Positions 1 to 62,436 of a stretch of 64,000 bases of DNA are shown here, one piece after another. Source of the DNA: Bacteroidales bacterium. Lineage in GTDB: Bacteria; Bacteroidota; Bacteroidia; Bacteroidales; WCHB1-69. The translations under genes and the position numbers were made by a program. The stretch's first letter is position 1, and the number at the start of each line of letters is the position of its first letter. The stretch covers positions 5,082-69,081 of the forward strand of contig JAKSMC010000008.1 of the NCBI GenBank assembly GCA_024400835.1, written 5' to 3'. The notes beneath the pieces were generated by a model. That model saw only the letters and a program-made list of their open reading frames with translations, searched no databases and was not told where the DNA came from.

Positions 1-811
1 TGGCCAGCTGCTGTTCCTCCTCAATGCGCTGCTGTTCGAGGTCGAAGACGCTCTGCTCGGATTGCAGGATGCTCATCTGCTGGTTGTCAACGCTCATCCG
101 CGATGATTCAAATGAGGACTGCTGCTGCAAGTAGCTGTTCTTGGAAGACTGGTACTCTGACAGTGAAAGCATTCCTTTGGCATACAGTGACGAGTCCATG
201 GAAAAGAGACTGTGTGCCGAAGCGAGCTGTTTTCTGCTGATCTGCAACTGGTTGACGGTCTTTTGCAGCAGACTCCTTTGCGATGAAATTTGTTTGCGGA
301 TGACCTTTATTTTGCGGTTGTGGTAGTCGGTTTCGATGAAATGCCGGTAATCCGTCAGGGCCTTGTCGAATGCGGTGTAGGCGGATTGGATGTCGCCCAA
401 TTGCAGGGACGAAAAATTTGTGGATTGGATGTCGCCCGTTTGTATGGACGAAAAATTTTTCGTCCGTACAATGTCGCGCAGCATCGTTTTCACCAGCATT
501 ACGTCCTCCAGACGGGCGGTATTGTGGATGACGGCCAGCAGGTCGCCCTCGCGCACCAGCTGTTTCTCGGCCACGGCGAGGGTGTCTATTTTGCCGGTGG
601 TCATCGCCATCACGCCGGCGGGCAGGTTCTCGGTGGTCACGGTGATGGTGGCGGGCAGGATGTCCGGGTACTTGAGGAAGTAGCTGCCCACGAATAGGCC
701 GGCCACCACGATGAAGATGACGCTGATGCCCGCACGCACTATCCAGCGCGGCGGCCTGCCGAGGATCTCTTGTACTTCCTCGCTGCGGAGATTTATGTTG
801 TCGGTTGGCAT
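1..811 (-). CDS. HlyD-family secretion adaptor (membrane-fusion) protein, N-terminal part; the gene runs off the window start
   Basis: It is absent from the ORF track because it leaves the window. The minus-strand ATG at 811..809 gives MPTDNINLRSEEVQEILGRPPRWIVRAGISVIFIVVAGLFVGSYFLKYPDILPATITVTTENLPAGVMAMTTGKIDTLAVAEKQLVREGDLLAVIHN..., followed by Q/S-rich coiled-coil. This is a TM anchor plus lipoyl-like hairpin, typical of bacteriocin-exporter HlyD partners. It lies downstream of the C39-ABC gene on the same strand. Confidence 0.8.
   Translation of the reverse strand, partial: MPTDNINLRSEEVQEILGRPPRWIVRAGISVIFIVVAGLFVGSYFLKYPDILPATITVTTENLPAGVMAMTTGKIDTLAVAEKQLVREGDLLAVIHNTARLEDVMLVKTMLRDIVRTKNFSSIQTGDIQSTNFSSLQLGDIQSAYTAFDKALTDYRHFIETDYHNRKIKVIRKQISSQRSLLQKTVNQLQISRKQLASAHSLFSMDSSLYAKGMLSLSEYQSSKNSYLQQQSSFESSRMSVDNQQMSILQSEQSVFDLEQQRIEEEQQLA
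383..460. repeat. In-frame 39-bp tandem duplication (2 units, 34/39 identical) inside hlyD, overlapping a perfect 20-nt palindrome at 446..465
   Basis: Unit 1 (383-421) is ggattggatgtcgcccaattgcagggacgaaaaatttgt. Unit 2 (422-460) is ggattggatgtcgcccgtttgtatggacgaaaaattttt. They encode NFSSLQLGDIQSA / NFSSIQTGDIQST. The palindrome is ggacgaaaaatttttcgtcc. Confidence 0.85.
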
Positions 812-818
812 TTTTTTA

Positions 819-881
819 GGGAATAGGTAATAGGGAATAGGGAATAGGGAATAGGTGATGGGGGTAGGGGTTAGGGATTGG
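819..881. repeat. Heptamer array A (GGGAATA/GGTAATA orientation on the + strand, degenerating to GGGGTAG/GGGTTAG)
   Basis: The sequence reads gggaata ggtaata gggaata gggaata gggaata ggtgatg ggggtag gggttag ggattgg. It fills the space between the hlyD start (811) and the four-helix-bundle gene and overlaps that gene's stop codon (871-873). Confidence 0.95.
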
Positions 882-1227
882 ATTTGGCGGTTTTTATGCG
901 TGAGGTGAGTAATTTTATCAGTTCGGAGCAGTCGTTGCTGATGCTTTCGAAGGCGATGTTGTCAATGTATTCTGATTCGTGTAGTAGTTCTAACCAATAT
1001 TCCGTTTCTGCAGCTTCCTTGAGCGCAATGGAAGATTTTGAAACGAAGTCCGCCTTAGATTGTGCGTAGGTGCTCTCAGTCAAATTGGCCCCGATGCTTG
1101 TTCCGCACCGCAGCACTTGCTTGGACATCACAAACTCCTTCCTCTCCTCAATCAGAAACTTATACAATCGTATAACCCTCAATGCAAAAGCCTTCGCTTT
1201 TTTCATAATAATTCCTTTATTTTCCAT
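871..1227 (-). CDS. Four-helix-bundle protein (23S rRNA intervening-sequence protein / S23-like family)
   Basis: The 118-aa ORF contains ...AFALRVIRLYKFL...VLRCGTSIGANLTESTYAQSKADFVSKSSIALKEAAETEYWLELL.... The GxSIGANxxE and EtxYWLxL motifs are characteristic of this family. An alternative start is M8 at 1206. Confidence 0.8.
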   Translation of the reverse strand: MENKGIIMKKAKAFALRVIRLYKFLIEERKEFVMSKQVLRCGTSIGANLTESTYAQSKADFVSKSSIALKEAAETEYWLELLHESEYIDNIAFESISNDCSELIKLLTSRIKTAKSNP

Positions 1228-1289
1228 GTTTTTTTCACAATAACGTGAAATAAAAGTTAATATTGTATTAAAAAATATTTTTTTAAAAA

Positions 1290-1353
1290 CTATTACCTAC
1301 CACTTATTACCTATTACTTATTACTTATTACCTATTCCCTATTACCTATTCCC
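1290..1353. repeat. Heptamer array B (CTATTAC/CTATTCC orientation), inverted relative to array A
   Basis: Nine heptamers read ctattac ctaccac ttattac ctattac ttattac ttattac ctattcc ctattac ctattcc. Positions 1331-1353 (cctattccctattacctattccc) are the exact reverse complement of 819-841. The last codons and stop of the ABC gene (LGNR*) are encoded by the array. Confidence 0.95.
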
Positions 1354-3675
1354 TAACTCCAGCTGGTTCCTCACCAACTCGAAGTACTCGCCTCGCAGGG
1401 CGGTGAGTTCCTCGTGTGTGCCCGTCTCCGTGATGCGGCCGTGGTTGATGACCACGATTTGGTCGGCGTTCTTCACCGTGCTCAGGCGGTGCGCCACCAC
1501 GACAACCGTCCTTCCCTTGAAGAACTGCTGGAGGTTCTCCATAATCACCTTCTCGTTGTTGGCATCCAAGGCGTTGGTTGCCTCATCGAAGAAGAGGTAG
1601 TCGGGATTCTTATAGACGGCGCGGGCGATGAGTATGCGCTGGCGCTGGCCCTGACTGATGCCTTTGCCCTCCTGTCCTATCTTGGTGTTGAAGCCTAACG
1701 GCAGCCCGTCTATCATCTCCTGGATGTTGGCCACGCGCACGGCGTTGAGCAGGCGCTGGGTGTCGATGTGCTCGTCACCCACGGCGATGTTGCGGGCGAT
1801 GGTGTCCGAGAAGATGAATCCGTCCTGCATCACCGCGCCGCAGCGGTCACGCCAGAAGCGGTGACTGATGTTCTGCAGCCCCGTCTCGCCCACGCGGATC
1901 TCACCCTTGTTGGGCGGGTAGAAGCCGAGCAGCAGTTTCACCAAAGTGGTCTTGCCGCTGCCGCTCATCCCCACAATGGCCGTCACCTTGCCCTCCGGAA
2001 TGTGCAGCGACAAATCGTGCAGCACATCCTCCCCCAACTCATCATACCGAAATGTTATATTATTGATGTCGAGAGACGCGGCACGCCACGTCCCCACAAA
2101 ATCCCTATTCCCTATTACCTGTTCCTTATTCCCTATTACCTGTTCCCTATTACCTATTACCTGTTCCCTATTACCTATTACCTGTTCCCTATTACCTATT
2201 ACCTGTTCCCTATTACCTATTCCCTCTTCCCTCTCCTCGTCCTCGCGATTATGAATCTCCCCCAGCCGTTCCAGACTGATTTTGGCATCCTGCGCCGACT
2301 GGATGAAGCCTATCATCTGGTTGATGGGGGCGTTGAGCTGGCCGATGATGTACTGAACGGCGGTCATCATACCCAGGGTCATGTCGCCCTTGATGACGGC
2401 GGCGGCGGAGACGAAGGAGATGAGGATGTTCTTGGTCTCGTTGATGAAGAACGCGCCCGACTGCTGGTACTGGCTGAGCGCCAGGCCCTTGATGCTTACG
2501 CGGAAGAGCTTGGCCTGTATGTTCTCCCATTCCCAGCGTTTCTGCTTCTCGCAGTTGTTGAGCTTGATTTCCTGCATTCCCGTGATGAGCTGGTAGAGGT
2601 TGCTCTGCTCGGCGGAGGCCTGCGCGAAACGCTTGTAGTCCAACTCTTTTCGTTTTTTCAGGAATATGGTAATCCACAGCACGTAGAGGATGGAGGCCAC
2701 TAAAAAGACGAGGAACAGCTTGAGGCTGTAAAGCGCCAGCACGATGCTGAACACGATGAGGTTGACGAACGAGAACAGCGTGTTGAGCGTGGTGGAGGTG
2801 AGGAAGGCCTCGATGCGGCTGTGGTCGCCGATGCGCTGCATAATGTCGCCGATCATCTTGGTGTCGAAGAAGCCGATGGGCAGCTTCATCAGCTTGATGA
2901 GGAAGTCGGAGATGATGGAGATGTTGATGCGGGTGCTGATGTGCAGCAAGATCCACGAGCGGATGAACTCAACGGCGGTCTGCGCTAAGTAGAGGGTGAG
3001 CTGGGCGATGAGGATGACGATGACGAAGCTGAGATTGTTGTTGCCGATACCGTAATCCACGATGCTCTGCGTGAGGAATGGGAAGAAGAGCTGCAGCAGC
3101 GTGCCGAGCAGCATTCCGAGGAAGAGCTGCACGATGAGTTTCTTGTAGGGTTTGAGGTATTGGAGTACGAAGCGCAGTTTGGTCTTGTCCTGTTTTTCGT
3201 CTTCCTGTTTGTAGAAATCCGGGGTGGGTTCCAACAGCAGGGCGATGCCCTCGTCTTGGCCGTCCGTTTTGGTGCTGAGCCATCCTGACAGGAATTCCTG
3301 CACAGTGAATTTGATGAGACCCTGTGCGGGGTCAGCCACATAGACCAGTGAACTGTGATCAGTGAGCTGTGAACTGTCTTTGGGAGGTTTGATGTCGTAA
3401 ACGACCACGAAGTGGTTCTGTTTCCAGTGTACGATGCAGGGTAGGGGTGCCTCGCAGAGCTGTTGGAACGAGATGTGCACACCGACGGTGCGGAAGCCGA
3501 TGCCCTCGGCGGCGGTGCTGATGCCGAGCATACTCACCCCCTCGCGCCCGATGAAGCACTTCTGCCGGAGCGTCTCCAACGAATAGTGCTTGCCGTAGTG
3601 CTTGGCAATCATCCGCAGGCACGTCGGCCCGCAGTCCATCGCATCGAGCTGCTGATAAAACGGAAACTTACCCAT
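1342..3675 (-). CDS. Peptidase-C39-domain bacteriocin/RiPP ABC exporter (peptide cleavage/export permease-ATPase)
   Basis: The 777-aa product has an N-terminal C39 domain (QLDAMDCGPTCLRMIAKHYG...HWKQNHFVVVY...VADPA). It then has a six-TM ABC membrane domain and an NBD with Walker A GMSGSGKTT, signature ISQGQRQR, Walker B LFFDEATNALD and H-loop VVVAHRLST. Confidence 0.95.
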   Translation of the reverse strand: MGKFPFYQQLDAMDCGPTCLRMIAKHYGKHYSLETLRQKCFIGREGVSMLGISTAAEGIGFRTVGVHISFQQLCEAPLPCIVHWKQNHFVVVYDIKPPKDSSQLTDHSSLVYVADPAQGLIKFTVQEFLSGWLSTKTDGQDEGIALLLEPTPDFYKQEDEKQDKTKLRFVLQYLKPYKKLIVQLFLGMLLGTLLQLFFPFLTQSIVDYGIGNNNLSFVIVILIAQLTLYLAQTAVEFIRSWILLHISTRINISIISDFLIKLMKLPIGFFDTKMIGDIMQRIGDHSRIEAFLTSTTLNTLFSFVNLIVFSIVLALYSLKLFLVFLVASILYVLWITIFLKKRKELDYKRFAQASAEQSNLYQLITGMQEIKLNNCEKQKRWEWENIQAKLFRVSIKGLALSQYQQSGAFFINETKNILISFVSAAAVIKGDMTLGMMTAVQYIIGQLNAPINQMIGFIQSAQDAKISLERLGEIHNREDEEREEGIGNREQVIGNREQVIGNREQVIGNREQVIGNKEQVIGNRDFVGTWRAASLDINNITFRYDELGEDVLHDLSLHIPEGKVTAIVGMSGSGKTTLVKLLLGFYPPNKGEIRVGETGLQNISHRFWRDRCGAVMQDGFIFSDTIARNIAVGDEHIDTQRLLNAVRVANIQEMIDGLPLGFNTKIGQEGKGISQGQRQRILIARAVYKNPDYLFFDEATNALDANNEKVIMENLQQFFKGRTVVVVAHRLSTVKNADQIVVINHGRITETGTHEELTALRGEYFELVRNQLELGNR
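2104..2229. repeat. Heptamer array C inside the ABC exporter ORF: six 21-nt units of three heptamers each
   Basis: The unit cctatta cctatta cctgttc occurs as three perfect copies (2146-2208) flanked by three variant units. It is translated on the minus strand as GIGNREQV IGNREQV IGNREQV IGNREQV IGNKEQV IGNRDFV, in the linker between the TM domain and the NBD. Confidence 0.95.
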
Positions 3676-3680
3676 ATCAC

Positions 3681-3785
3681 CTATTCCCTATTACTTATTC
3701 CCTATTACTTATTCCCTATTACTTATTACTTATTACCTATTACTTATTACCTATTACCTATTACCTATTACCTATTACCTGTTCC
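3681..3785. repeat. Heptamer array D: 15 tandem heptamers forming essentially the whole intergenic spacer
   Basis: The array reads ctattcc ctattac ttattcc ctattac ttattcc ctattac ttattac ttattac ctattac ttattac ctattac x4 ctgttcc. It is bounded by the ABC start codon (3675) and the SPASM-gene stop (3786). Confidence 0.95.
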
Positions 3786-4898
3786 CTAATCTTCCCCCAA
3801 AATCTCCTTATTCAGTTTGTCAATCCGTTCCTTGTCCGGCACAAATCCCGTTTCGCGGGAATACGTGCCGCACTCCTCTACAGGCACGTAGCCTTCCTGG
3901 CCTTCCCAGAGGCAGATGTAGGGGTTGTAGGTACACTTGGCGGGTTGGGAGTAGATGTTTTCGGGATCTTTGATGAAGGCGCGGCAGTCGGTACACATAT
4001 AGCGGAACTCGCAATCCTTGCAAACGTCAATCTTGTCCTTATTGATGAACCAGAGATCCTTGAATCCCGGCTTGTTGATAGCCTCCTCCAAAGTGGTATC
4101 CCTGATGTTGCCGTAGCTTTTGGCCATAGCCGGACAGTTCTTGATGTTGCCCTCGGCATCAATGCACACCTTGCGGTTGAGGCAGGTGTTGTGGCACTGG
4201 GCTTCGGTGAAACATTCAATTGTTCTACAAAAATAATAAGGATGAATATTGCCGCAACTTATTGAGTTATCTATTTTCTCTTTAGTAATAATTATAGTAT
4301 TTTCTCCTTCTTGAATTATTTTATTGTAGTCAGAATTTGTAACAACAATTTTGCTAATAGAGGAGTTGTTTCTCCTCCAAGTTAAAAGTTCAGCTTCAGA
4401 TGCTATATTTGAAGCATTTATGACATACTCGAAATATTTCATACCTACATTACTGGCATAGTGTTGAATTTCAGAGATTTTTTCCGATTCAAAACGGCTA
4501 AAAATCAAAAATTGTATATTAACACAATTCAAACGGAGAAGTTCACTAAGTATGTTTTTATAAAATTTATAATTGAAATTGTTTAATACCAATATTGCAT
4601 TGGTGACATGTGCTGGATACGCCCAGGTCAGATCCATTTTGGGGAAATTTTGCAACTCATTGTCTTCTATCTCAAATAGATACTCTTCTTTAATAAGGCT
4701 ATTAATAAAAGAAGAAATGTTTTTTTGAGAGAACTTATCATATAGACCTATTGTTAGGGAATCAATCACATTATTATCATTGAATAAGCCAGTAATACCA
4801 TTTGGTATAAATATATGTTTGTCTCGCTGTAGATCGTATATACAACTTCTTCCATAACCTACCACAAGTCTACAGCATTCGAATAATCTATACTTCAT
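3786..4898 (-). CDS. SPASM-domain peptide maturase of the 'grasp-with-spasm' type (no canonical radical-SAM CX3CX2C motif visible)
   Basis: The 370-aa product starts MKYRLFECCRLVVGYGRSCIYDLQRD.... Its C-terminal Cys-rich SPASM-like region is CHNTCLNRKVCIDAEGNIKNC...CKDCEFRYMCTDC...C. The N-terminal half has no CxxxCxxC. The gene is adjacent to an ATP-grasp gene. Its 3' ~430 nt are GC-rich and its 5' ~680 nt are AT-rich. Confidence 0.8.
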   Translation of the reverse strand: MKYRLFECCRLVVGYGRSCIYDLQRDKHIFIPNGITGLFNDNNVIDSLTIGLYDKFSQKNISSFINSLIKEEYLFEIEDNELQNFPKMDLTWAYPAHVTNAILVLNNFNYKFYKNILSELLRLNCVNIQFLIFSRFESEKISEIQHYASNVGMKYFEYVINASNIASEAELLTWRRNNSSISKIVVTNSDYNKIIQEGENTIIITKEKIDNSISCGNIHPYYFCRTIECFTEAQCHNTCLNRKVCIDAEGNIKNCPAMAKSYGNIRDTTLEEAINKPGFKDLWFINKDKIDVCKDCEFRYMCTDCRAFIKDPENIYSQPAKCTYNPYICLWEGQEGYVPVEECGTYSRETGFVPDKERIDKLNKEILGED

Positions 4899-5091
4899 AA
4901 TTAGACAGATTAAAATTTAGAATTTTTGAAATGGTTTTATAAAAAGTAAACACCTTTTCCACTTCATTTGAATATTGTTTGATTTGTTCTTCGTTTGAAC
5001 TAGTGCTTTGGTCGATTTCCCAAAAATGTGCTATTACAGGATAGCGTTCGGGATTGTCCATTATTTCTTTCGTTAAGGGGGTTTCTTTCAT
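4888..5091 (-). CDS. Small acidic hypothetical protein (67 aa), translationally coupled between the ATP-grasp and SPASM genes
   Basis: Its start shares an ATGA overlap with the ATP-grasp stop (5088-5091), and it overlaps the SPASM gene start by 11 nt. No recognisable motif and no GG leader are present. Confidence 0.5.
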   Translation of the reverse strand: MKETPLTKEIMDNPERYPVIAHFWEIDQSTSSNEEQIKQYSNEVEKVFTFYKTISKILNFNLSNYEV

Positions 5092-6047
5092 TTCAATAAA
5101 TAATCTGCGATTGTTTTTTCTAAATGATAATTACAATTCCTGCTAAGCCATCCAAATTGTCCAATGGGATTGACTTCAAGAAAAACATACTGGTAGTCGG
5201 GAGTGACGATGATATCGGCGGATCCAGAGGTTAGTTTTAGTTGTCGATAAAGTTTAAGAAGTTTTTTCTCGTACCATAAAGGTAGTTTGTATGGTACGTT
5301 TCTATTGGGATTATCACTATCATAGTTCCGGAAATCCACTTGTGTCTTTTTATTATTTTGACTGAAGATTGCCATACTATAGATTTTGTCATCAAGAAAA
5401 AAACTTCGAATCTCATATTTCTTTTCAATATATTCTTGAAAAAGAGAAGGAACGAATGAAGCTGGAAGTTTCGCAATCTTGTAGTCGTTTAGCAGGACAG
5501 TTGAGGACGAGAACCTGTATTCCTTCCCGTTAATAATAGCATTTCCTAATGGAGCGACAGTGGATTTCGTAATAATTTTCCCGAATTTTTTTGCAAACTC
5601 TTCCAAGTCAGATTTACTACTAGTTACTAAGGTTGCAGGTATATTAATTCCTAAATGTTTGCAATTGTACAAAACATTCATTTTTTCAAGAAAATTATCA
5701 GAAGCACAATTGATATTACTAGTGAAATTCAAACTTTCCAGAAAAGTTTTAACTGGCGCCACATGTTTGTTCCACAAATACGTATTTACGCTGGGGTATT
5801 CTGATTTGCATTGAGTAAAAAAATTCAGCATACCTCTTCTGTACCAATATTTATCTTTTTCTGACACAGTATGCTGGTTGAAATCGACTATCACGTCATT
5901 GTCTGACACCAAAAGTTTCACGGATTCGATATCATAAAAATCATTTATTTCTATCAAGCAATCAGTATGACCATAGTAATTAAGCCATCGTACAACCTCG
6001 CTTGAGGATTCATCATCACTAACAGTTTGTATATATATATTCCTCAT
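5088..6047 (-). CDS. ATP-grasp RiPP maturase ('grasp-with-spasm' / MvdD-like graspetide ligase)
   Basis: The C-terminal half contains ...KIITKSTV...YEIRSFFLDDKIYSMAIFSQNNKKTQVDFRNYD...ADIIVTPDYQYVFLEVNPIGQFGW..., an ATP-grasp fold signature as in microviridin-type ligases. The start is chosen at M19 (6047), which abuts the upstream stop (6049-6051); the longest ORF would start at 6101. Confidence 0.82.
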   Translation of the reverse strand: MRNIYIQTVSDDESSSEVVRWLNYYGHTDCLIEINDFYDIESVKLLVSDNDVIVDFNQHTVSEKDKYWYRRGMLNFFTQCKSEYPSVNTYLWNKHVAPVKTFLESLNFTSNINCASDNFLEKMNVLYNCKHLGINIPATLVTSSKSDLEEFAKKFGKIITKSTVAPLGNAIINGKEYRFSSSTVLLNDYKIAKLPASFVPSLFQEYIEKKYEIRSFFLDDKIYSMAIFSQNNKKTQVDFRNYDSDNPNRNVPYKLPLWYEKKLLKLYRQLKLTSGSADIIVTPDYQYVFLEVNPIGQFGWLSRNCNYHLEKTIADYLLK

Positions 6048-6048
6048 A

Positions 6049-7200
6049 TTATAAGTATTGCGTATGTCCCCACCTAAAGACACAGCCCTGGTCTTCAGCA
6101 AATCGAATCTTTGCTCTGTCTGCTTCTAAAGAACAAATACAAAACTTTTTTCGAAGACCGTTAATTCTATCGTCTGGAATGATGGAGGCTAACGATGAGA
6201 CACCTACGGAACGATCAACAAAGAAAATTGCCATATTTTTTTCTGAGCAAAATAAAGGATTTTTACTCAAATAAGTGTCATACATAAAAGCATACAATCT
6301 TGGATGGAGGTTCCCTTTCTCTATTTCTTCAATGGCATATTTTTCAATATAGGCATACATACTGTCTTGATGGACATAGAAAGATTCCAATAGACCTTGT
6401 GTGAGTCTGTTTGTGTTCATTTCGTATAATATCGTGTCGATATGGTCAAATTCGATGTAAATAGTGTCGCCATTGGGCATTACGGATGTCAAAGGCCTAT
6501 CCCCAATAATTCTGGTCAATGCCGCTGAATCCCTAAATACTTTTGATTTGAAATCCAAGCAAGAAATTCCTAATTCGTCAAACAGTTGATTGTCATCAAT
6601 GCCGAGAATCTTTTGGCCGGGGAATCCGTATTTTTGAACAAGTTGCTGATATTTCATATCCCATACAAGGAGGCTGTCTTTATACGGGTTGTTTTCACTG
6701 TTTTCATATTCCTCCAGCACCATTTTTTGATCTGCTATGCAAAGGTCATAAATTTGGCACAGGTAGTCCGTGCTGATTGAATGAAGATAATATCGGTGCC
6801 TTTGCTTTCCTTCTTCTAAATTTTCATAAACCTGAAAATCTTTTAGAACTTCTGATTCCGCCCACATTGGAATGAATGCGAGGTGTTTGGACCGAAGGCC
6901 GTACTTTACGCCTTTATGAAGGTAGTATTCATAATTGTGCTTCGGATAATATGGAAATCTGTCCTTTGAAGTGTAAAAAGAAATTTGTGCTGCATTAAGC
7001 AAGTCGTTTACATAATTGAATTCAAAGTTGTCAAAAGCAAGGTCGTAATAATATAAGCAGCTATCCGCATTGTTATCCACAAAGAATGCATTTTCGGCTT
7101 GAGCTATCCACTGATGATATTGCCAATAATTGTCCCCAGCATATGGCTGTGCCACAAGGTACAAAGGGAACAACAATACAGTAATAAGTTTTTTTAGCAT
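6049..7200 (-). CDS. Hypothetical exported protein (383 aa) encoded between the precursor and the ATP-grasp gene
   Basis: The N-terminus MLKKLITVLLFPLYLVAQP looks like a signal peptide. The protein is Tyr/Asp-rich with no motif I recognise. It is tightly packed in the operon. Confidence 0.65.
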   Translation of the reverse strand: MLKKLITVLLFPLYLVAQPYAGDNYWQYHQWIAQAENAFFVDNNADSCLYYYDLAFDNFEFNYVNDLLNAAQISFYTSKDRFPYYPKHNYEYYLHKGVKYGLRSKHLAFIPMWAESEVLKDFQVYENLEEGKQRHRYYLHSISTDYLCQIYDLCIADQKMVLEEYENSENNPYKDSLLVWDMKYQQLVQKYGFPGQKILGIDDNQLFDELGISCLDFKSKVFRDSAALTRIIGDRPLTSVMPNGDTIYIEFDHIDTILYEMNTNRLTQGLLESFYVHQDSMYAYIEKYAIEEIEKGNLHPRLYAFMYDTYLSKNPLFCSEKNMAIFFVDRSVGVSSLASIIPDDRINGLRKKFCICSLEADRAKIRFAEDQGCVFRWGHTQYL

Positions 7201-7220
7201 AAACTTTGATTTTAATTTGT

Positions 7221-7260
7221 CAAGTGAGAAATTGACCAGAAACGGTCAGTTTCCCACTTG
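7221..7260 (-). terminator. Stem-loop immediately downstream of precursor gene 1 (attenuator or stabiliser; no U-tract)
   Basis: The sequence caagtgagaaattgacc-agaaac-ggtcagtttcccacttg forms a ~17-bp interrupted stem. It sits between the precursor stop (7278) and the next start (7200). Confidence 0.45.
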
Positions 7261-7277
7261 ATTTAAATTTTCATAAT

Positions 7278-7511
7278 CTACTTTTTATCTTCGGGGCATG
7301 GGATAGTGTAAGTATCGGATAGAACTTGTCCAAAACCACTTAGAGAATCATCGTAAATGTCACATTCGGTTGATATTATATTACCATTTTGATCTTTGTT
7401 ATATATTGTCGTTTTTCTTTTCGACCCACCTCTGATTTTCAAAGGAGAATCAATTGATTGAGATTTATAGTCTTCTAATTTTTTATTGTTGATTGTTTGT
7501 ATTTTTTTCAT
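7278..7511 (-). CDS. RiPP precursor peptide 1 (double-glycine leader; candidate graspetide/SPASM substrate)
   Basis: The sequence is MKKIQTINNKKLEDYKSQSIDSPLKIRGG | SKRKTTIYNKDQNGNIISTECDIYDDSLSGFGQVLSDTYTIPCPEDKK. The 29-aa Lys-rich leader ends in GG, which fits a C39 cleavage site. The 48-aa core is rich in Ser/Thr (10), Asp/Glu (8) and Lys (5), with 2 Cys. The start is taken at MKK (7511); the ORF track starts 2 codons earlier. Confidence 0.7.
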   Translation of the reverse strand: MKKIQTINNKKLEDYKSQSIDSPLKIRGGSKRKTTIYNKDQNGNIISTECDIYDDSLSGFGQVLSDTYTIPCPEDKK

Positions 7512-7517
7512 AACCAA

Positions 7518-7740
7518 ATAGTTTAAATGGTAAAACTCCTCTTTCCCGCGGGTGTGTCGGCACTTTGCGCGGCACTTTCGGGTATGTCATCACAACGGGA
7601 AAAATGGTATCTTTGCCGCCTGATTTGCAGTGCCATCGCGTTACAAACATCACGATATATGCGACCTCGGTGCTTTTGAGCAGGGTACATCGTACTAAGA
7701 ATGCGACTTCCTTGGCGATGTCCCTGCGGGGGCACCTGTT
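7518..7740 (-). other. GC-rich non-ORF segment upstream of precursor 1, paralogous to 11899..12120 upstream of precursor 2
   Basis: Collinear similarity blocks have matching spacing and matching distance (about 71-75 nt) to each precursor ATG: 7586-7634 vs 11969-12016, 7678-7691 vs 12055-12068, and 7717-7733 vs 12097-12113. The segment also contains the direct repeat cggcacttt N3 cggcacttt at 7557-7580. Confidence 0.6.
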
Positions 7741-7743
7741 TTA

Positions 7744-7778
7744 GGGAATAAGTAATAGGTTATAGGTAGTATGTGATG
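7744..7778. repeat. Heptamer array E (GGGAATA orientation, degenerate, 5 units)
   Basis: The array reads gggaata agtaata ggttata ggtagta tgtgatg. Positions 7744-7759 are the exact reverse complement of cctattacttattccc, which is present twice in array D (3687-3702 and 3701-3716). Confidence 0.8.
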
Positions 7779-8088
7779 AGTTTACTTATTCACCTGTTTA
7801 CGTCCTGCCAACGGTCTTTACGCACCACGATGGCAGGACTTCAATCAAGGAAGTGATTCTTCCCCAACCAATAGAGGTCGGGCAGCAAATAAGGATTCAG
7901 GTTGTCATCTTTCATTCATTCGTCATTTTTAGTTAGCGGTTGTCTTATTCAGTGTGTTAACCTTTTACGGTCCTCTTCATCGGCCGCGCCCAGCCCGTAA
8001 AAAGCGAGTGCAATAATATTAAAAACTTTTGTATATAGGTCGTTTTTCTGTTTTTTACTTTAATGATTATCAAATAGTTAGCGATTGC

Positions 8089-8535
8089 TTAAGTAATAAA
8101 ACAGCCTATCGAGAAGCGGAATTTTCGGAGAAAATCCGATGGGGGATGGTGGGGATTTCGGAGAAATTTGATGAGGCCCTGCGCGGGGTCCGCCACATAG
8201 ACCAGTGAACTGTGATCAGTGAGCTGTGAACTGTCTTTGGGGCGTTTGATATCGTAAACGACCACGAAGTGGTTCTGTTTCCAATGCACGATGCAGGGCA
8301 ATGGTGCCTCGCAGAGCTGTTGGAACGAGATGTGCACGCCGATAGTGCGGAAGCCGATGCCCTCGGCGGCGGTGCTGATGCCGAGCAGGCTCACGCCCTC
8401 GCGGCCGATGAAGCACTTCTGCCGGAGCGTCTCCAACGAATAGTGCTTGCCGTAGTGCTTGGCAATCATCCGCAGGCAAGTGGGGCCGCAATCCATGGCA
8501 TCGAGTTGCTTGTAAAACGGGAATTTTTTACTCAT
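8089..8535 (-). CDS. Stand-alone peptidase C39 domain: a truncated paralog of the 5' end of the ABC exporter gene (functional status unknown)
   Basis: The 148-aa ORF has its first ~123 aa nearly identical to the exporter N-terminus (MSKKFPFYKQLDAMDCGPTCLRMIAKHYG...HWKQNHFVVVY...VADPAQGLIKF). The nucleotide homology 8166-8535 vs ~3318-3675 is roughly 90% by eye. It then diverges into an unrelated 24-aa tail. The catalytic Cys, His and Asp positions are retained. Confidence 0.55.
   Translation of the reverse strand: MSKKFPFYKQLDAMDCGPTCLRMIAKHYGKHYSLETLRQKCFIGREGVSLLGISTAAEGIGFRTIGVHISFQQLCEAPLPCIVHWKQNHFVVVYDIKRPKDSSQLTDHSSLVYVADPAQGLIKFLRNPHHPPSDFLRKFRFSIGCFIT
8138..8157. repeat. G-rich heptamer-like patch at the C39-paralog breakpoint, flanked by a 10-bp direct repeat
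   Basis: The patch gatgggg gatggtg gggatt resembles the degenerate end of array A. It is flanked by ttcggagaaa at 8124-8133 and 8157-8166. Homology to the full-length exporter gene ends here. Confidence 0.6.
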
Positions 8536-8577
8536 TGATAGTTACTCATTACTAAATCCTAATTGTTAATCCTCTCC
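8536..8577. repeat. Heptamer array F (degenerate, TATTACC orientation) directly upstream of the C39 paralog
   Basis: The sequence reads ..tagttac tcattac taaatcc taattgt taatcct... It occupies the same position relative to the C39 start codon as array D does for the full gene. Confidence 0.55.
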
Positions 8578-8583
8578 CCAAAT

Positions 8584-8660
8584 CTATTTGTTCAACTCAG
8601 CAATCCTCTTCTTGTCGGGCATTCCCTCAAGCCTGTCCGAGAACTCCAAATCATGTATTT
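8584..8660 (-). pseudogene. Remnant of the 3' end of a SPASM maturase gene (last ~20 codons plus stop)
   Basis: The minus-strand translation ...LEFSDRLEGMPDKKRIAELNK* aligns with the C-terminus of the 3786..4898 product (...TYSRETGFVPDKERIDKLNKEILGED*). It has the same order (SPASM end, heptamer spacer, C39 start) as 3786-3675. Confidence 0.5.
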
Positions 8661-8850
8661 TTATTCACAAGTTACATGTGAAAAAAAAACTCTTTTTTTC
8701 AATTTTGCGGAGAAGGGGATAAATGAGTTCTCGGACGAACTTATCTTTTCGTGGTAAGCTGCTTCGAACACCTCTACGGGTATCTATCCTATCAAGAGCT
8801 ACCTGTCTGTACAAAAAGAGTGAGCATGATTCGTTTTATTTTTTTTAAAT

Positions 8851-10275
8851 CTATTTCTTGTCATTCATCACCATTTTCACAATCTCTTCGACATCACTAT
8901 TCTCGAAATCCCTTTCCACATCAGGGGCAATCCCGTTCGAGCAGTCGCGGTTGCGGGTGTCAAAACTTCTGAACGAGTTGATCATGCAGATGATGCCTGA
9001 GGGGAGCGGTACCACAAGCGGCTGACCTGTAGCACCCGCAGTGGTTTTTCCCACCACACACACATTCGGACTTTGCACGAGCTGCATCACGAAACCCTCT
9101 GCGGCGGAGGCTGTGCGCGGACCGACCAAGACGTAAACTTTCCCATGATACCGTTGCGAGTTCGGATTCCCGTTCGCCACCGTAGTTGCTTGGATGGTAT
9201 CGAACGCATTATTGAATAAATGCGGACAATAGACCCGTTTGGTGTATTCATCCATGGATTCAGGATCTCCATACAGCATTCTCACAGCCGCCCAAGCCCG
9301 GTAGGCCGAATTGTTGACCCGCGACAACAGCACTCCCGACAACATAATCGAATCTTTATCAACAAGATAAGGCGTTATAGGAGAATAGGCTCTGCCGTCG
9401 CCCCCCAAATTGTTGCGCAAATCCAGAACGAAATGCATATTTTGGTTGATTGTGGGTAAATATTTCATGAAAGTGTCCACCGTGGCCGCATTGCAATCGT
9501 CGATACGCAGATATGCAGCATCTTGTGCCGGAAAAACCACAAACAGATTATTATTTCCAGCCAAGTTTTCACTTTCTATCGCCATCCAATGGTATTTCAA
9601 CTGTTCCTCTTCCTGTTCTTTTGATGGAGAAAAATGCCAGTCGTAACCTATTGACAGCTTCTTGAGCCCATTTCCCGATTTCACCTCCATTTCCAGCTTT
9701 GTGTTATAGCTTTTCGGTTGGAAAATCATGGGATGCAAGGCATTCGGCGTGAACATCGCGGCTTCAAGCAAGGTCTCTTGATTGGTGCAAGAAATCAGTG
9801 GCGCTACATTTTGCGTAAACCATTCCACTGCAGGAATCCCATCTATACGGACAATTTCATCCCCAACTGAAACCTTGTCGGCGTATTGAGAGCTGATATT
9901 GCGGATATAAATCCTGCCGTCTCTGTACTCCGTCTGCAGTCGAATCATCGCCAACGAAGGCATTAGCTGTTGCGGCATCATGCAGTAGGTGTGGCTGTTA
10001 TGAAAATGCGCCAAGAACTCCTGCATCGTCAGGTAGTGCTCGAAATCGTCCTTTGTCCGCTGAATCTTGGGGATATAGGCGGCATAGAGACTGTCCACGT
10101 TCAGTCCCTGACAATTATCCATATTGGCGAAGTTGTAGGACAACTCTTTCCAAACCACAGCGAGTTCGTATATTTTTTGAGATGATGTGAGCTGTTCTTT
10201 ACCGCCAACTTGTGCGATAAGGGTTGGCGTAATCAAGATTGTCACAAAAGCTAAAATAAAAGGAATTTTTTTCAT
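8851..10275 (-). CDS. Peptidase S41 family (tail-specific/C-terminal processing protease-like), with signal peptide
   Basis: The 474-aa product starts MKKIPFILAFVTILITPTLIAQ. It contains FVLDLRNNLGGDG and VYVLVGPRTASAAEGF, which match S41 DLRxNxGG and S-A-x-E type motifs. Its start lies 12 nt downstream of the rSAM gene. Confidence 0.8.
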   Translation of the reverse strand: MKKIPFILAFVTILITPTLIAQVGGKEQLTSSQKIYELAVVWKELSYNFANMDNCQGLNVDSLYAAYIPKIQRTKDDFEHYLTMQEFLAHFHNSHTYCMMPQQLMPSLAMIRLQTEYRDGRIYIRNISSQYADKVSVGDEIVRIDGIPAVEWFTQNVAPLISCTNQETLLEAAMFTPNALHPMIFQPKSYNTKLEMEVKSGNGLKKLSIGYDWHFSPSKEQEEEQLKYHWMAIESENLAGNNNLFVVFPAQDAAYLRIDDCNAATVDTFMKYLPTINQNMHFVLDLRNNLGGDGRAYSPITPYLVDKDSIMLSGVLLSRVNNSAYRAWAAVRMLYGDPESMDEYTKRVYCPHLFNNAFDTIQATTVANGNPNSQRYHGKVYVLVGPRTASAAEGFVMQLVQSPNVCVVGKTTAGATGQPLVVPLPSGIICMINSFRSFDTRNRDCSNGIAPDVERDFENSDVEEIVKMVMNDKK

Positions 10276-17030: not shown

Positions 17031-17205
17031 CATTCAAAAAAAGGAGCCTACTCGCCTATTGGCCCATAAATAAGGGTAACTATATACTTGTTGACCTAAT
17101 TGCTTTTTATAACATAATTTTGGGATTACTACTGATGCGATAAATTTCGAATGCCAATATATCTGTTCTATTCCCGTCGGGCCTGCCCGAACGGAGGCGC
17201 CCATT

Positions 17206-17354
17206 CCCCTTCTTTTAGAAGGGGTGGCTGAAAGCCGGGGTAGTGATATGGGTGTTTGCGAAGCAACCTTTATATAACGGATAATAATGTACGGCTTCGC
17301 CGTGATGTTTATGCCACTACCCTGCCCTACGGGCACCCCTTCTAAAAGAAGGGG
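17206..17354. repeat. 149-bp GC-rich MITE-like or structured element bounded by exact 19-nt inverted repeats that are themselves hairpins
   Basis: 17206-17224 (ccccttcttttagaagggg) is the exact reverse complement of 17336-17354 (ccccttctaaaagaagggg). The interior has nested complementary segments: gggtagtg/cactaccc and gcgaagc/gcttcgc. Confidence 0.6.
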
Positions 17355-18002
17355 AATTTATGATCGCGCAAAATTTGCTTTTGCGCTTAATGTGTGATGA
17401 TAATAACCTTGCGCCTTTGAGAAATGAACAAATAGTGTTTTTCAAATCAAAAAATCAAATAATGTTTGTATTTTATATTATATCAATAACTTATAAGATT
17501 TTTTCAAAATTTATCGCAACATTAGTATTTTGGGATATAGACATAGCCCTACGATTTTCACCAACGAACACGAATGTAGATCAACCTCTATATAATTCGT
17601 GTGTATTCGTGTTAATTCGTGGGAAAAATAAGCAGGGCAACAAATATGTGCCCCCCATTTATATGATTTTCAACACGATTTTTATTTGATTTTGAGCGCA
17701 GCGACCTTGTTTTTCCCAAACATTTTCGAGCAGATTCTTTTTTGATTTTAAAACATCCATTTAAAAAATTTCTGCCACAACGCAGTCACCTATGCAAGTT
17801 TCAAAATACCAATGAAAATCCCATCAAAAATAGCCAGGGAAAACTGGCTTAATATGGGGTCGTCGTCTTTCAGACTCCTTAAAATCATATTGAAAATCCA
17901 ATAAAAAATCTAATGAAAATATCGCAGACTTCTCAATAGCCCAAATATTGTCCAAAAATTGCTAAACAATCAATGTTTTCGGGCCAACAAGTATATGGTT
18001 GC

Positions 18003-37044: not shown

Positions 37045-40000
37045 TTACTTCGTAACAACAAGTTTTCTAGATACAGTAGCGTTTTCGCCCTTAACGTAGA
37101 TGAAGTAAACACCAGGAGCGAGGTTGCTGATTTCGCGGCTGTAAACATAGTCAGCAGCAGCAGGGATGTTGATAGCATCTTCAGCGAGAACCTTACCAGC
37201 AAGGTTGACAACTTGAACCTTAGTGTCACCAGCGATACCCTTGATATGAGCCTTAACAGTGTTAGCAGAAGTAGCCGGGTTCGGATAGAGAGTCATTGTA
37301 GGACCATCAACTTCAGCAACAACAGGAGCAGGAGTCATAGAAGGAGTAGCAGCGAGGTTATCTTCACCTTCAACATTGATAGTGAGTACGTCGTAAGCGA
37401 GAGTATCATAATGAGCACTTGCAACAACTGCATCGTAACCACCGATAACAGCAGGAGTAGATGTACCATTGTTGTATTGGTGACCATTAGGATGAGAGTT
37501 AGAAGTAGACATCAAAGTGTAGACAATCTTGTATTCACCAGCTCTTCTGAACTTGTTGACAGTCTTGTAAACAGGTCTTTCAGCGAGGAAGTGGAGATAA
37601 AGATCATCATAGTTAGCTGCAGGTAAATTAAAAGTACCAGCAGGATAGTGGTTAGATTGATAATAACCAGATGTCATGTTAGATTGAGCGTAGTTATAAT
37701 AACAGGTAGCATTCATAGGAGTTCCATGAGCTGAGTACCAATTGATACTGTCACGAGTAACGTATCTGTTGGTCATTGTACCAGCTTCTGTGATATACAA
37801 ACCAATGCTGTCATCATCGATGAGCTCGCCGTTGAAGTAGATATCGAAGTTAACGAATACCAATTCATCAGGATTGTATTCACAAGGATTAGAAACCATC
37901 CAAGTGTAATTTGTCTGAGCATCAGCAGTGTTAGCGTCGAATTCGTGAGTTTCAGCGCCTTCGTGAGTGAAGATGAAGTGAGGTTTGCCAGTAACTTCTA
38001 CGGTAACAGCGTCATCAACAGAGAATGTACGAGCATCAACAGTAGCGTTAACGTTAGCTACGGAAGTACAACCGTTAGCATCTGTAACTTCTACATTGAA
38101 TTTATAAGTACCTTCACCATCAACTGCGTTGTAAGTATAAGTTTGAGCAGTAGCACCATCAATAGCTTCATCATTCATGTACCATTGATAAGATTCGAAC
38201 TCTTCAGTAACGGAGAGTTGAGCAGTAGCGCCGTTACAAATGATTGTATCAGATAAGATTTGAGGAACAGGAAGTTCGTGAACCTTAAGAGTATCAGCAA
38301 CAGTGTCAGTACCACAAGCGTTAGTTGCGATGAAGTAGAGAACCTGACCATTGAGAGCCATTGTAGAAGCGGAATCCCAAGCCATGGTATCAGCACCAAT
38401 CATCCAAGCAGTAGTAGTAGCAAGACCGTTAGAGTCAATATCGTTGATTGTAGGAGCTGTAGGCATGATGAAGAGATCACCAACACAGACTTCGAGGTCA
38501 CCACCAGAGATAGGAGCATTAATCTCAGGAGCACCGTTAACCTTAATAGAAAGGGTTACAGACTTAGGATCACATTCTGGTACAGCAGTGCTGGTAGCAG
38601 TAACGACGAATTTGAAAGTATCTTCTGTCATAACTGTAGGAGCACCAGCAAGAGTACCATTTTCAGCGTCAAATACAAGACCAGGAAGTACACTGTCAAC
38701 GGAGAGAGTAGCATTAGCAAATTCAAATGTGATTGTATCGATTTCAGTGTTCATACAAACAACTTGGTTGATATTTGTAGCATTCAACTTAACAGTGTCG
38801 TTAACAACGATAGTGTCATTGATAACCTTTTCTGTACAACCATTAACGCTTGTAGCTTTGATTACATAAGCGTATGTACCAGCAGCGGTAGGAGTACCGG
38901 AAATTGTCATAGTAGTATCGTTAAATGTAACACCAGCAGGAAGAGTATCAACTGTAACAGTAGCGTTAGTAGCTTCGATTGCGATGTCAGCGATAGGTTG
39001 ACCGAGGCAAATAGCTGTTTGATCAAGACCTGTAGCAGACAATGTAACAGTGTCGCTAATCATAATAACACCGGTGAGAGTCTTAACGCCGCAAGAAGGA
39101 GTAGCATTGCTTGTAGCTGTAATTGTATAGGTAACAGTGTCAGCTGCAACAGGAGTACCGGAAATAGTATCATTTGCAAATGTAACACCATCAGGAAGAC
39201 CTTCGACTTTGACCGTAGCATTTTCATAAGAAACAACTACTGGAACCATGGCATTGCCGAGGCAGAATGCAGCTTGGTCGAGATTTGTAGCGGAAACCTT
39301 AACAGTATCATTAACGATGATAGTACCGAAAATAGTGTCGTTTGATGAAGGACAATCCGTATTGGAAATTGCAGCGATAGTATAACGAATAGTATCTGCA
39401 GCAATAGGAGTACCGGAAATAGTCTTATTCAAAGTGTCATACACAAGACCAACAGGGAATTCAGTTACTTCAATCGTAGCATTAGCAGAAGTGAATGCGA
39501 TAGGAGCAATAGCTTCACCTAAACAGATAGTTTGATCAGCTTGTGCATCAGCAGCGAGTTCGAGTTTAACTGTATCTCTAACGATAATAGTAACAGTATC
39601 AAATACAGCAGGACATGCAGATAAATTTCTATATACTGTAAAACGCTCAATAAGAGTATCGGCTACAGTAGGAGTACCTTCAAGGAAAATGATGCCAGGC
39701 ATCCCCTGTTTATGTTGTAAACCAGGTGAAGCAGTACTAGTGAAATAATCACGGTCAGATGATCTAATAATAACTTGTTCTATTGACTGACCCAAACAAA
39801 TAGTTTGGTTTTTATTAGAAACAGTATAAGTAACAGGTTCTTCAACTGTGATAGTAGCAACGACAGTCTTTTCACGGCAGTAACCTTCAGCCTTAATATT
39901 CATAGTATATGTTCCAGCAACCGTTGGAATACCAACAATTGTATCATTTACTAAGGAAAGACCAGGACAAAGGGTGTCAACAGAAATTGTAGAGAATGCA

Positions 40001-61719: not shown

Positions 61720-61807
61720 AAAGAGAAAAAATGCTGGCAAAAGTACAAAAAAAGGGGAACGCATCAAAACGCCCCCCAACTTCAGTAAAATTTTGTTTTA
61801 CAATATA

Positions 61808-62269
61808 TTACAAACTGTCAATATCAGAGATAGGATCCAACAAGTCATCATCTCTGTCACTATGGGTAGAAACTCCCGCACTTCTTTGCAAAGACGCGAT
61901 AAGAGAGCCTATCATTTTAGTCAGTTCCATAAGTTGTGTCCTGGAATAAACTTTAGCATCGTCGTCCAGCAATTGCATACGGTAAGCCAGCTCCGTATAT
62001 ACGACACATTCTCTGACAGAACTTTTTGCCATTTTCAAATAATATAAAAACTGGGTTTTGCTCCTTGAAGAGCCTTCCGCCGTATTCAATGCAATATTAT
62101 TTGCAGATTTCTGGAATGATTCTTTTAAAAAAATAAGATTTTTTTCATCACACATTGGAGATGAAGTGGAAATTCTTTCATAAAGCCACGTGATATAATC
62201 CATAGCTTTTGCGTATATACGCAGGTCTTCAAACCGAAAGAAGCTTACATTAATATCTTGCTCATTCAT
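61808..62269 (-). CDS. Four-helix-bundle protein (23S rRNA IVS protein family), second copy
   Basis: It contains ...FRFEDLRIYAKAMDYITWLYE...NNIALNTAEGSSRSKTQFLYYLKMAKSSVRECVVYTELAYRMQLL.... The start is chosen at MNEQDIN (62269). Unlike the first copy, it is not flanked by heptamer arrays. Confidence 0.7.
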   Translation of the reverse strand: MNEQDINVSFFRFEDLRIYAKAMDYITWLYERISTSSPMCDEKNLIFLKESFQKSANNIALNTAEGSSRSKTQFLYYLKMAKSSVRECVVYTELAYRMQLLDDDAKVYSRTQLMELTKMIGSLIASLQRSAGVSTHSDRDDDLLDPISDIDSL

Positions 62270-62436
62270 AATAATAGTGTTTAGAGTTTTAAAATGGCAA
62301 AGATACTTTTTTTTCATATACGGAGATGTCGTTAACATTTTTTAACAATTATTTTTTTCAAACTGCAGAAGAGAGAGTGTGAAGGTGCGATTACTACAGC
62401 ATTTTTTGTATTTTTGCCTTCCAAATTTTACAAGTC

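Follow-up and report, generated by a model that had tools for sequence, protein, structure and literature searches.

A four-helix-bundle gene between inverted heptamer arrays in a Bacteroidales exporter operon: a candidate intervening-sequence-type cassette

The genes of a C39-peptidase ATP-binding cassette (ABC) exporter and its HlyD-type adaptor are normally adjacent. In a Bacteroidales bacterium (GenBank assembly GCA_024400835.1) a small gene for a four-helix-bundle (4HB) protein lies between them, bracketed by tandem arrays of a 7-nt repeat that face each other in opposite orientation. What kind of element is this, and what would it do to the message of its host operon? The stretch analysed, referred to as the window, comprises the 64,000 nucleotides at positions 5,082 to 69,081 of contig JAKSMC010000008.1. 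The element occupies positions 816-1356 of the window. The original prediction, made from the window alone, likened it to the intervening sequences (IVSs) of 23S rRNA. With moderate confidence we read it as an IVS-type small-gene cassette in an mRNA operon, one that would be read through with its host genes, pair its arms in the transcript and be cut by RNase III.

Three puzzles have so far been treated separately. These are the 23S rRNA IVSs that carry an open reading frame (ORF), the large 4HB family (S23p/TIGR02436 and Avd-like) that has no assigned function, and the unexplained intergenic heptamer arrays of several phyla. The analysis presented here suggests a common basis for all three in a single kind of element: a small cassette, able to reside in any transcript, that stops translation arriving from upstream and encloses itself in a long stem. 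If this is true, the rRNA IVSs would be a special case of a far commoner operon-invading cassette, the biology of which is testable in cultivable Bacteroides or Nostoc. In the window the cassette may split the exporter message and shift the ABC:HlyD ratio.

The cassette and its insertion site

Positions 816-1356 of the window are an insertion into a C39-ABC/HlyD junction that is normally tight. Among 80 ABC ortholog loci from metagenomes, the gap between the two genes is mostly 8-60 bp where a HlyD homolog follows, so the earlier statement that they are normally adjacent holds. Empty junctions in close orthologs likewise bear out the description of a unit wedged between them. At locus L084, where the ABC protein is 84% identical, the junction is 45 bp long and has neither array nor gene. 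At L082 (ABC 86% identical) it is 87 bp and has a solo array of a different heptamer but no gene. L001 (ABC 89% identical) contains the same cassette as the window with much shorter arms. In the alignment the insertion point falls between the conserved C-terminus of ABC (...LELGN) and a conserved segment of HlyD. In the window, HlyD has acquired a new start 4 nt beyond the 3' arm and lacks about 12 of the N-terminal codons found at the empty site of L084.

The ABC, 4HB and HlyD genes are all encoded on the minus strand and the cassette is described here in sense order. The 5' arm (1290-1356) is a heptamer array that reads TTAGGGAATAGGTAATAGGGAATAGGTAATAAG... in the sense direction, and the ABC stop codon (1342-1344) falls within it. 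An AT-rich leader of 62 bp with 13% G+C (1228-1289) separates the 5' arm from the 4HB start codon and is approximately 91% identical in L001, as counted by hand on the alignment. The 4HB gene (871-1227) encodes 118 amino acids. It is followed by the 3' arm (816-870; sense CCCCTACCCCCATCACCTATTCCCTATTCCC...CCTAA), which is the complement of the 5' arm heptamers and stops 4 nt ahead of the HlyD start codon. The gene has a G+C content of 43%, compared with 55-56% in the flanking ABC and HlyD genes.

The original prediction described the flanks as oppositely oriented heptamer arrays that include a perfect 23-bp inverted repeat (819-841 and 1331-1353). The coordinates given there are confirmed. That repeat is exact and its full perfect length is 26 bp, with 816-841 being the reverse complement of 1331-1356. 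With 87% complementarity it can be extended to 47 nt. The arms consist of GGGAATA/GGTAATA (GGKAATA) units in arrays of period 7, reported by Tandem Repeats Finder at 817-855 and 1290-1355. They are identical over their outer 26 bp and diverge further in. Inverted 16-mer seeds lying within 700 bp of each other number 24 in the whole window versus 0.2 in block-shuffled windows. Near-matches to the array motif number 29 in the 64 kb, all between 819 and 7759, where 0.04 would be expected. A scan of positions 1-9000 against Rfam gave no rRNA or other match, and the arms are covered by no family.

The insertion at this junction is not a single event. A small gene is found in seven other ABC-HlyD junctions, and in six of these (L087, L093, L107, L109, L142 and L151) it belongs to TIGR02436. 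The six junction genes, together with those of the window and L001, form five groups with 20-30% identity between groups. Each of the six is bounded by inverted short-period arrays of its own sequence, for example GCGGAAG/CTTTCTG in L087 and GTGACNN/NNGTCAC in L142 and L151. The seventh junction (L101, 5226-5932) contains a GxxExxY gene and an inverted repeat of a different kind (GGAACACGGAT.../...ATCCGTGTCATCTGTGTTCC). The ABC proteins of the occupied junctions are 60-72% identical while their small proteins are unrelated sub-branches, which argues for independent insertions or replacements. Judged from these comparisons, the ABC-HlyD junction has apparently been struck repeatedly. The proposal that the unit is mobile or excisable is supported by the empty sites and independent insertions on the evolutionary scale only, and not as ongoing excision.

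Gene-less inserts are also seen at this position. In L106, L114 and L127 the ABC-HlyD gaps hold inserts of 220-270 bp that are rich in ACGCAGAT and AATCAGCGT motifs and contain no gene.

The architecture across the gene family

Is the layout peculiar to this junction, or does it accompany the gene? Homologs were collected from 80 reference-genome loci with proteins 50-68% identical, of which 72 have evaluable flanks. The loci span Bacteroidales, Clostridia, Myxococcota, Acidobacteriota, Treponema, Fibrobacter, Lentisphaerota, Neisseriaceae, Flavobacterium and others. Arrays were scored within 250 bp of the gene, and 1505 windows from the same loci served as controls. A flanking tandem array is present at all 72 loci, upstream in 69 and downstream in 61. 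Arrays with a period of 7 or 14 account for 65 of those upstream and 59 of those downstream (about 85% of flanks), compared with 5.8% of the control windows. Arrays are thus approximately 15-fold enriched beside 4HB genes relative to other windows of the same loci.

The orientation of the arrays is equally regular. Period-7 arrays flank the gene on both sides at 34 loci and are inverted at every one of them. The layout described in the original prediction recurs across phyla. The downstream unit compared with the reverse-complemented upstream unit is identical in 22 loci, has one mismatch in 10 and two mismatches in 2. When compared as direct repeats, the units differ at three or more positions in 28 of the 34. 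For the best inverted repeat of each locus the median length is 33 bp (interquartile range 29-36). The arrays sit close to the gene, at a median distance of 17 nt from the start codon and 6 nt from the stop codon.

These counts bear on the simplest alternative, in which the genome generically fills its spacers with heptamer arrays and the position of the 4HB gene between two of them is accidental. Arrays unaccompanied by a 4HB gene do exist, in the window as well as at related loci. Such a coincidence would have to produce the enrichment, the uniform inversion and the abutment of array and gene, and we consider it highly improbable. Chance placement was rejected because of the array enrichment and the 34 of 34 inverted pairs.

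The heptamer varies by genome yet fits a common consensus, AATTNAK. In 5' arm units aligned by rotation, the first four positions are A in 85%, A in 79%, T in 95% and T in 74%. The consensus carries 6.0 bits, compared with 4.4 +/- 0.13 for shuffled units. Heptamer similarity correlates with protein similarity (Mantel r -0.21, p<0.0005), a relationship that host phylogeny may confound.

Complete genomes of cultured Nostoc share the layout, with AAGTCGG x4.6 and ACTTCCG x5.7 around NPUN_RS34315, and AATTCAA x4.4 and AATTTTG x4.6 in N. flagelliforme. The layout thus does not arise as an artefact of metagenome assembly. Three identical copies in N. flagelliforme sit within one larger duplicated segment, so the ends of the element are not defined by these copies.

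Taken together, the 4HB gene with its inverted arrays looks, from the sequence comparisons, like a widespread and poorly described small cassette. No account of inverted heptamer arrays around this gene family outside rRNA was found in the literature. Genes annotated 23S_rRNA_IVP have been reported inside cas operons, for example between cmr3 and cmr2 (PMC3936711), and have been noted in rRNA insertions of Candidate Phyla Radiation bacteria. Intergenic arrays of the TAACTGA type are described from Beggiatoaceae, Cyanobacteria and Bacteroidetes, with no mechanism and no reported link to 4HB genes (PMC4679880). Like those of the cassette, they are 7-nt tandem arrays that are mostly intergenic, often abut start codons, contain stops in forward orientation and have a patchy phyletic spread (PMC4679880). 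The cassette differs in that its arrays are inverted pairs around one gene family.

Some cassettes lie inside housekeeping operons. Those at L162 2960-3420 (asd-4HB-dapA-dapB) and L172 2920-3390 (dNK-4HB-kdsB) are examples, and there the arrays make up practically the entire intergenic spacers. Genomes with 4HB cassettes also contain gene-less inverted array pairs of the same heptamers with loops of 30-100 nt (L062 1638-1888; L061 432-652; L013 2660-2910; L027 4810-5030; L006 788-1228). These are possibly ORF-less counterparts of the cassettes. Solo arrays show no orientation bias relative to local genes (22 versus 29).

Pairing in the transcript and maintenance in the DNA

Several features of the cassettes have a polarity that follows transcription. 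Between co-directional neighbours, the 4HB gene is co-oriented in 45 loci and anti-oriented in 7. On the sense strand, the 5' arm is rich in purines at 46 loci and in pyrimidines at 13. Of the 5' arm units, 36 of 45 contain a stop trinucleotide, compared with 26 of 51 units of the 3' arm; at a period of 7, three repeats suffice to place such a trinucleotide in every reading frame. Both in the window and at several other junctions, termination of the upstream gene falls in the array or right at it.

In both the minimum free energy (MFE) and the centroid structure predicted for the window cassette, the ORF is enclosed by a terminal stem made up of 26 perfect pairs and further extensions. The MFE is -154.5 kcal/mol, compared with -122 +/- 6 for shuffled sequences (z -5.4). 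The earlier suggestion that the arms pair into a long stem is thus supported by folding, with a predicted stem of at least 26 bp. Folding also predicts a stem for L162 and a weak one for L001.

The comparison with 23S rRNA is well founded. In Coxiella burnetii the IVS is 428 nt long and has an S23p ORF, terminal inverted repeats and a 28-bp stem (PMC4990558). Two to three tandem GACAGAT heptamers, variable in number among strains, lie directly upstream of the ORF. Cleavage by RNase III within the stem, at the first repeat, was demonstrated in vitro and by rapid amplification of cDNA ends (PMC4990558). The 23S IVSs of Coxiella and Leptospira share with the window cassette the protein family, the sense orientation and the stem-closing terminal inverted repeats, and the Coxiella IVS shares the tandem heptamers of variable copy number just upstream of the ORF (PMC4990558). 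The claim of a common topology is upheld, and the IVS-like interpretation as a whole is partly supported. The Coxiella ORF is decaying and probably untranslated, whereas the window ORF is under purifying selection. The hosts differ as well, since the IVS resides in 23S rRNA (at helix 45 in Coxiella; helices 9 and 25 are other known sites) and the window cassette resides in a protein-coding operon. As it lies between the ABC and HlyD genes, outside any 23S rRNA gene, it is not filed as an rRNA IVS, though it is IVS-like in anatomy.

From these features we propose the following course of events. The cassette would be read through with the operon, because the scan found no terminator-like site between ABC and HlyD and because co-orientation is the rule. 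The upstream ORF would terminate in the 5' arm. Pairing of the arms in the transcript would give at least 26 bp of duplex and enclose the ORF in a loop of about 490 nt. By analogy with the 23S IVSs of Coxiella and Leptospira, RNase III would cut this duplex. The cut would free the 4HB message and leave ABC and HlyD on separate messages. A candidate route by which the cassette reaches new sites is recombination with heptamer arrays already present.

A different use of the perfect repeats, also raised by the original prediction, would be an invertible DNA switch, in which recombination between the arms flips the 4HB gene. Perfect 26-bp inverted repeats around a small gene are what such a switch would need. 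Nevertheless, co-oriented genes outnumber anti-oriented ones by 45 to 7, identical proteins keep one orientation and one context on all sampled contigs, and the neighbouring genes that were scanned include no invertase or other recombinase. The switch was rejected because of the orientation counts, and we give it very little credence.

A number of points weigh against the IVS-type reading itself. The proposed cleavage of the window cassette by RNase III is plausible only by analogy, the processing having been demonstrated in Coxiella. The stem of L001 is short and interrupted and its whole-cassette fold resembles shuffled sequence (z 0.1), so the long stem, as modelled, is not strictly conserved even in the lineage of the window and L001. 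An internal promoter may be located in the conserved AT-rich leader (1228-1289), and a transcript started there would lack the 5' arm. The scan for sigma-70 promoters and terminators was uninformative and does not cover Bacteroidetes promoters. Mismatches between arms are of the G.U type in 37 cases and of the A.C type in 47. With no excess of G.U there is no direct signature of selection on a sense RNA duplex, and arm complementarity could be kept at the DNA level. Stem formation alone does not explain the conserved AAT core of the heptamers. Signs of recent movement are also lacking. Identical proteins (P0043, P0036) are each found in one fixed context and orientation across contigs, a search for identical cassettes in two contexts returned none, and no target-site duplication is visible.

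Given the absence of a G.U excess, the weak stem of L001 and the AAT core, a serious rival or complement to the IVS-type reading is that the arms are preserved as DNA, for instance through conversion between them or recombination with other arrays of the genome. In its full form the arrays are terminal repeats or recombination substrates, the gene swaps between sites that already bear arrays of the heptamer native to the genome, and the RNA stem is incidental. We regard this as clearly less probable than the IVS-type reading, and as the strongest of the alternatives. Much of the evidence is compatible with it. Solo arrays of the same heptamer lie nearby (3675-3788 and 2102-2232), solo arrays occupy empty ortholog junctions (L082 and gut Bacteroides-like loci), and gene-less inverted array pairs exist in related genomes. 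The identity of the outer 26 bp next to divergent inner parts, the mismatch spectrum, the different 4HB genes at the same junction and the correlation between heptamer and protein similarity all fit as well. However, neither the cassette nor the adjacent genes that were scanned include a transposase or recombinase. Target-site duplications are visible neither at the ends of the window cassette, of which the window holds one copy, nor at those of L162 or L182, and no identical cassette is found in two contexts. A symmetrical DNA element also leaves the purine-rich, stop-bearing 5' arm and the co-orientation of the gene unexplained.

The likeness to known mobile elements is likewise partial. The 23S IVSs themselves were earlier proposed to be mobile elements or remnants of such elements (PMC4990558). 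Terminal inverted repeats, as in transposons and miniature inverted-repeat transposable elements (MITEs), are present in the window cassette. Like MITE- and REPIN-type elements, the cassette is short, intergenic and bounded by inverted repeats, with gene-less hairpin versions in the same genomes. Unlike the unique terminal repeats of those elements, its arms are tandem heptamer arrays. It also has no visible target duplication and no identified partner transposase.

The protein, the host operon and other arrays of the window

The encoded protein is a clear member of its family, as had been claimed for the gene at 871-1227. It matches PF05635 at E 1.2e-27 (96.7 bits, cut-off 33.8) and TIGR02436 at E 5.6e-30 (103.8 bits, cut-off 24). 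A profile of the window protein and 25 homologs matches PDB 2RLD over its full length at E 2e-53, and this homology indicates the four-helix-bundle fold. The RxxxSxxxNxxE motif, which is conserved in the S23p family (Zhang et al. 2013, PMC3936711), is present as R40, S44, N48 and E51. An alignment of 26 sequences shows no variation at S44, N48 and E51, and at least 90% conservation of R40. The dN/dS ratio between the window gene and that of L001 is 0.175, which indicates purifying selection on the protein. An exact-sequence look-up of the protein returned no record, and libraries of defence-system and phage families gave no matches.

The solved structure 2RLD, which we take to be BT_0352 of Bacteroides thetaiotaomicron, is a close sequence relative of the window protein, a four-helix bundle with no assigned function. 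Both solved relatives, 2RLD and 2GSC, were deposited with five chains, and a Xanthomonas relative is described as a homopentamer (PMC4990558). The accessory protein Avd of diversity-generating retroelements has a homologous four-helix-bundle fold (PMC10053308). The junction cassettes of L109 and L142 match the Avd model weakly. Unlike Avd, the window protein has no match to the Avd model NF033474 at E<=1e-3, and the neighbours scanned in the window (ABC, HlyD, SPASM, ATP-grasp) include no reverse transcriptase and no template/variable repeat pair.

The pentamer invites a further alternative, in which the arrays are candidate RNA or DNA binding sites of the 4HB protein, serving autoregulation or message protection, and the five subunits set the arm length. 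Relatives of Avd bind nucleic acid. Arm lengths centre on some 33 bp, corresponding to about 4.7 heptamers, the AATTNAK core is common to heptamers across phyla, and the conserved residues form a polar stripe, R-x3-S-x3-N-x2-E. The match in length is numerical only, though, and solo arrays far exceed the need of one regulator. We consider this unlikely, although less so than the switch or the coincidence.

A broader proposal treats the 4HB proteins and the heptamer arrays as one self-propagating system. An Avd-like pentamer would recognise AATTNAK arrays, the approximately 4.7 repeats per arm matching five subunits. With a host polymerase, reverse transcriptase or recombination, it would spread cassettes as well as solo arrays, in-frame ones included. 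We consider such a system unlikely as well. If true, it would account for the unexplained heptamer arrays known from Cyanobacteria, Beggiatoaceae and Bacteroidetes, and for how the ORF-bearing rRNA IVSs arose.

The operon that hosts the cassette (3786-6101 and the exporter genes downstream) is a grasp-with-spasm peptide cluster, recognised by its TIGR04193 SPASM maturase and TIGR04192 ATP-grasp maturase. At the left end of the window the gene order in the sense direction is SPASM maturase, array, ABC, array, leader, 118-aa ORF, array and HlyD, all on the minus strand. The SPASM peptide maturase (3786-4898) comes first in this order. The C39-peptidase ABC exporter (1342-3675), identified by profile matches, is the upstream host gene of the cassette. 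The 5' part of the HlyD-type adaptor gene (1-811, start codon 809-811) matches a type I HlyD adaptor model below the curated cut-off. The maturase genes have 34-38% G+C and the exporter genes 55-56%. In the coding region of HlyD a 39-bp tandem duplication (383-458; 1.9 copies, 89%) includes an 18-nt palindrome at 440-471.

The heptamer of the cassette is not confined to its arms. Within 8 kb there are four GGKAATA arrays and one degenerate array. With 7-nt units at several sites, they are intergenic tandem heptamer arrays of the TAACTGA or short tandemly repeated repetitive (STRR) type, the latter being cyanobacterial intergenic heptamer arrays. A solo array of 114 bp and approximately 16 copies (3675-3788, minus strand) occupies the entire spacer from the SPASM maturase stop codon to the ABC start codon. 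It has the polarity of the 5' arm and is therefore also complementary to the 3' arm (816-870). A second array, with a 21-bp unit in 6.2 copies, lies in frame inside the ABC gene (2102-2232, minus strand). It encodes (IGNREQV)n at residues ~485-530, in the linker between the membrane and ATPase domains. Ortholog ABC genes contain arrays of other heptamers at a similar position (locus ~4470-4600), such as AATTAGG in L083, GCAGAAG in L096, AGAAAGG in L097 and GAGATAT in L088. The ABC-internal array of L001 has 3.7 heptamers only.

The degenerate array of the same heptamer family (TTTAGGGAATAAGTAATAGGTTATAGG...; 7743-7775, plus strand) adjoins a duplicated 5' fragment of ABC, and a search beside it for a decayed 4HB gene found none. 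The fragment (8164-8526) is a truncated copy of the C39 domain, 92.7% identical in DNA to 3308-3663, with degenerate heptamer-like sequence on either side.

The window contains a second, very divergent 4HB gene (61808-62338). The original prediction stated that it lacks such flanks, and this is correct for heptamer arrays. Flanks of another kind exist, as an A/T-rich inverted repeat of 17 nt with 94% complementarity (61736-61752 and 62402-62418) brackets the gene; it may be due to chance. Elsewhere, an AT-rich intergenic region (17203-17357) has a pair of 43-nt inverted repeats, 86% complementary and 69 nt apart, with a MITE-like appearance. A single ORF of 3508 amino acids extends over 37045-47571 on the minus strand.

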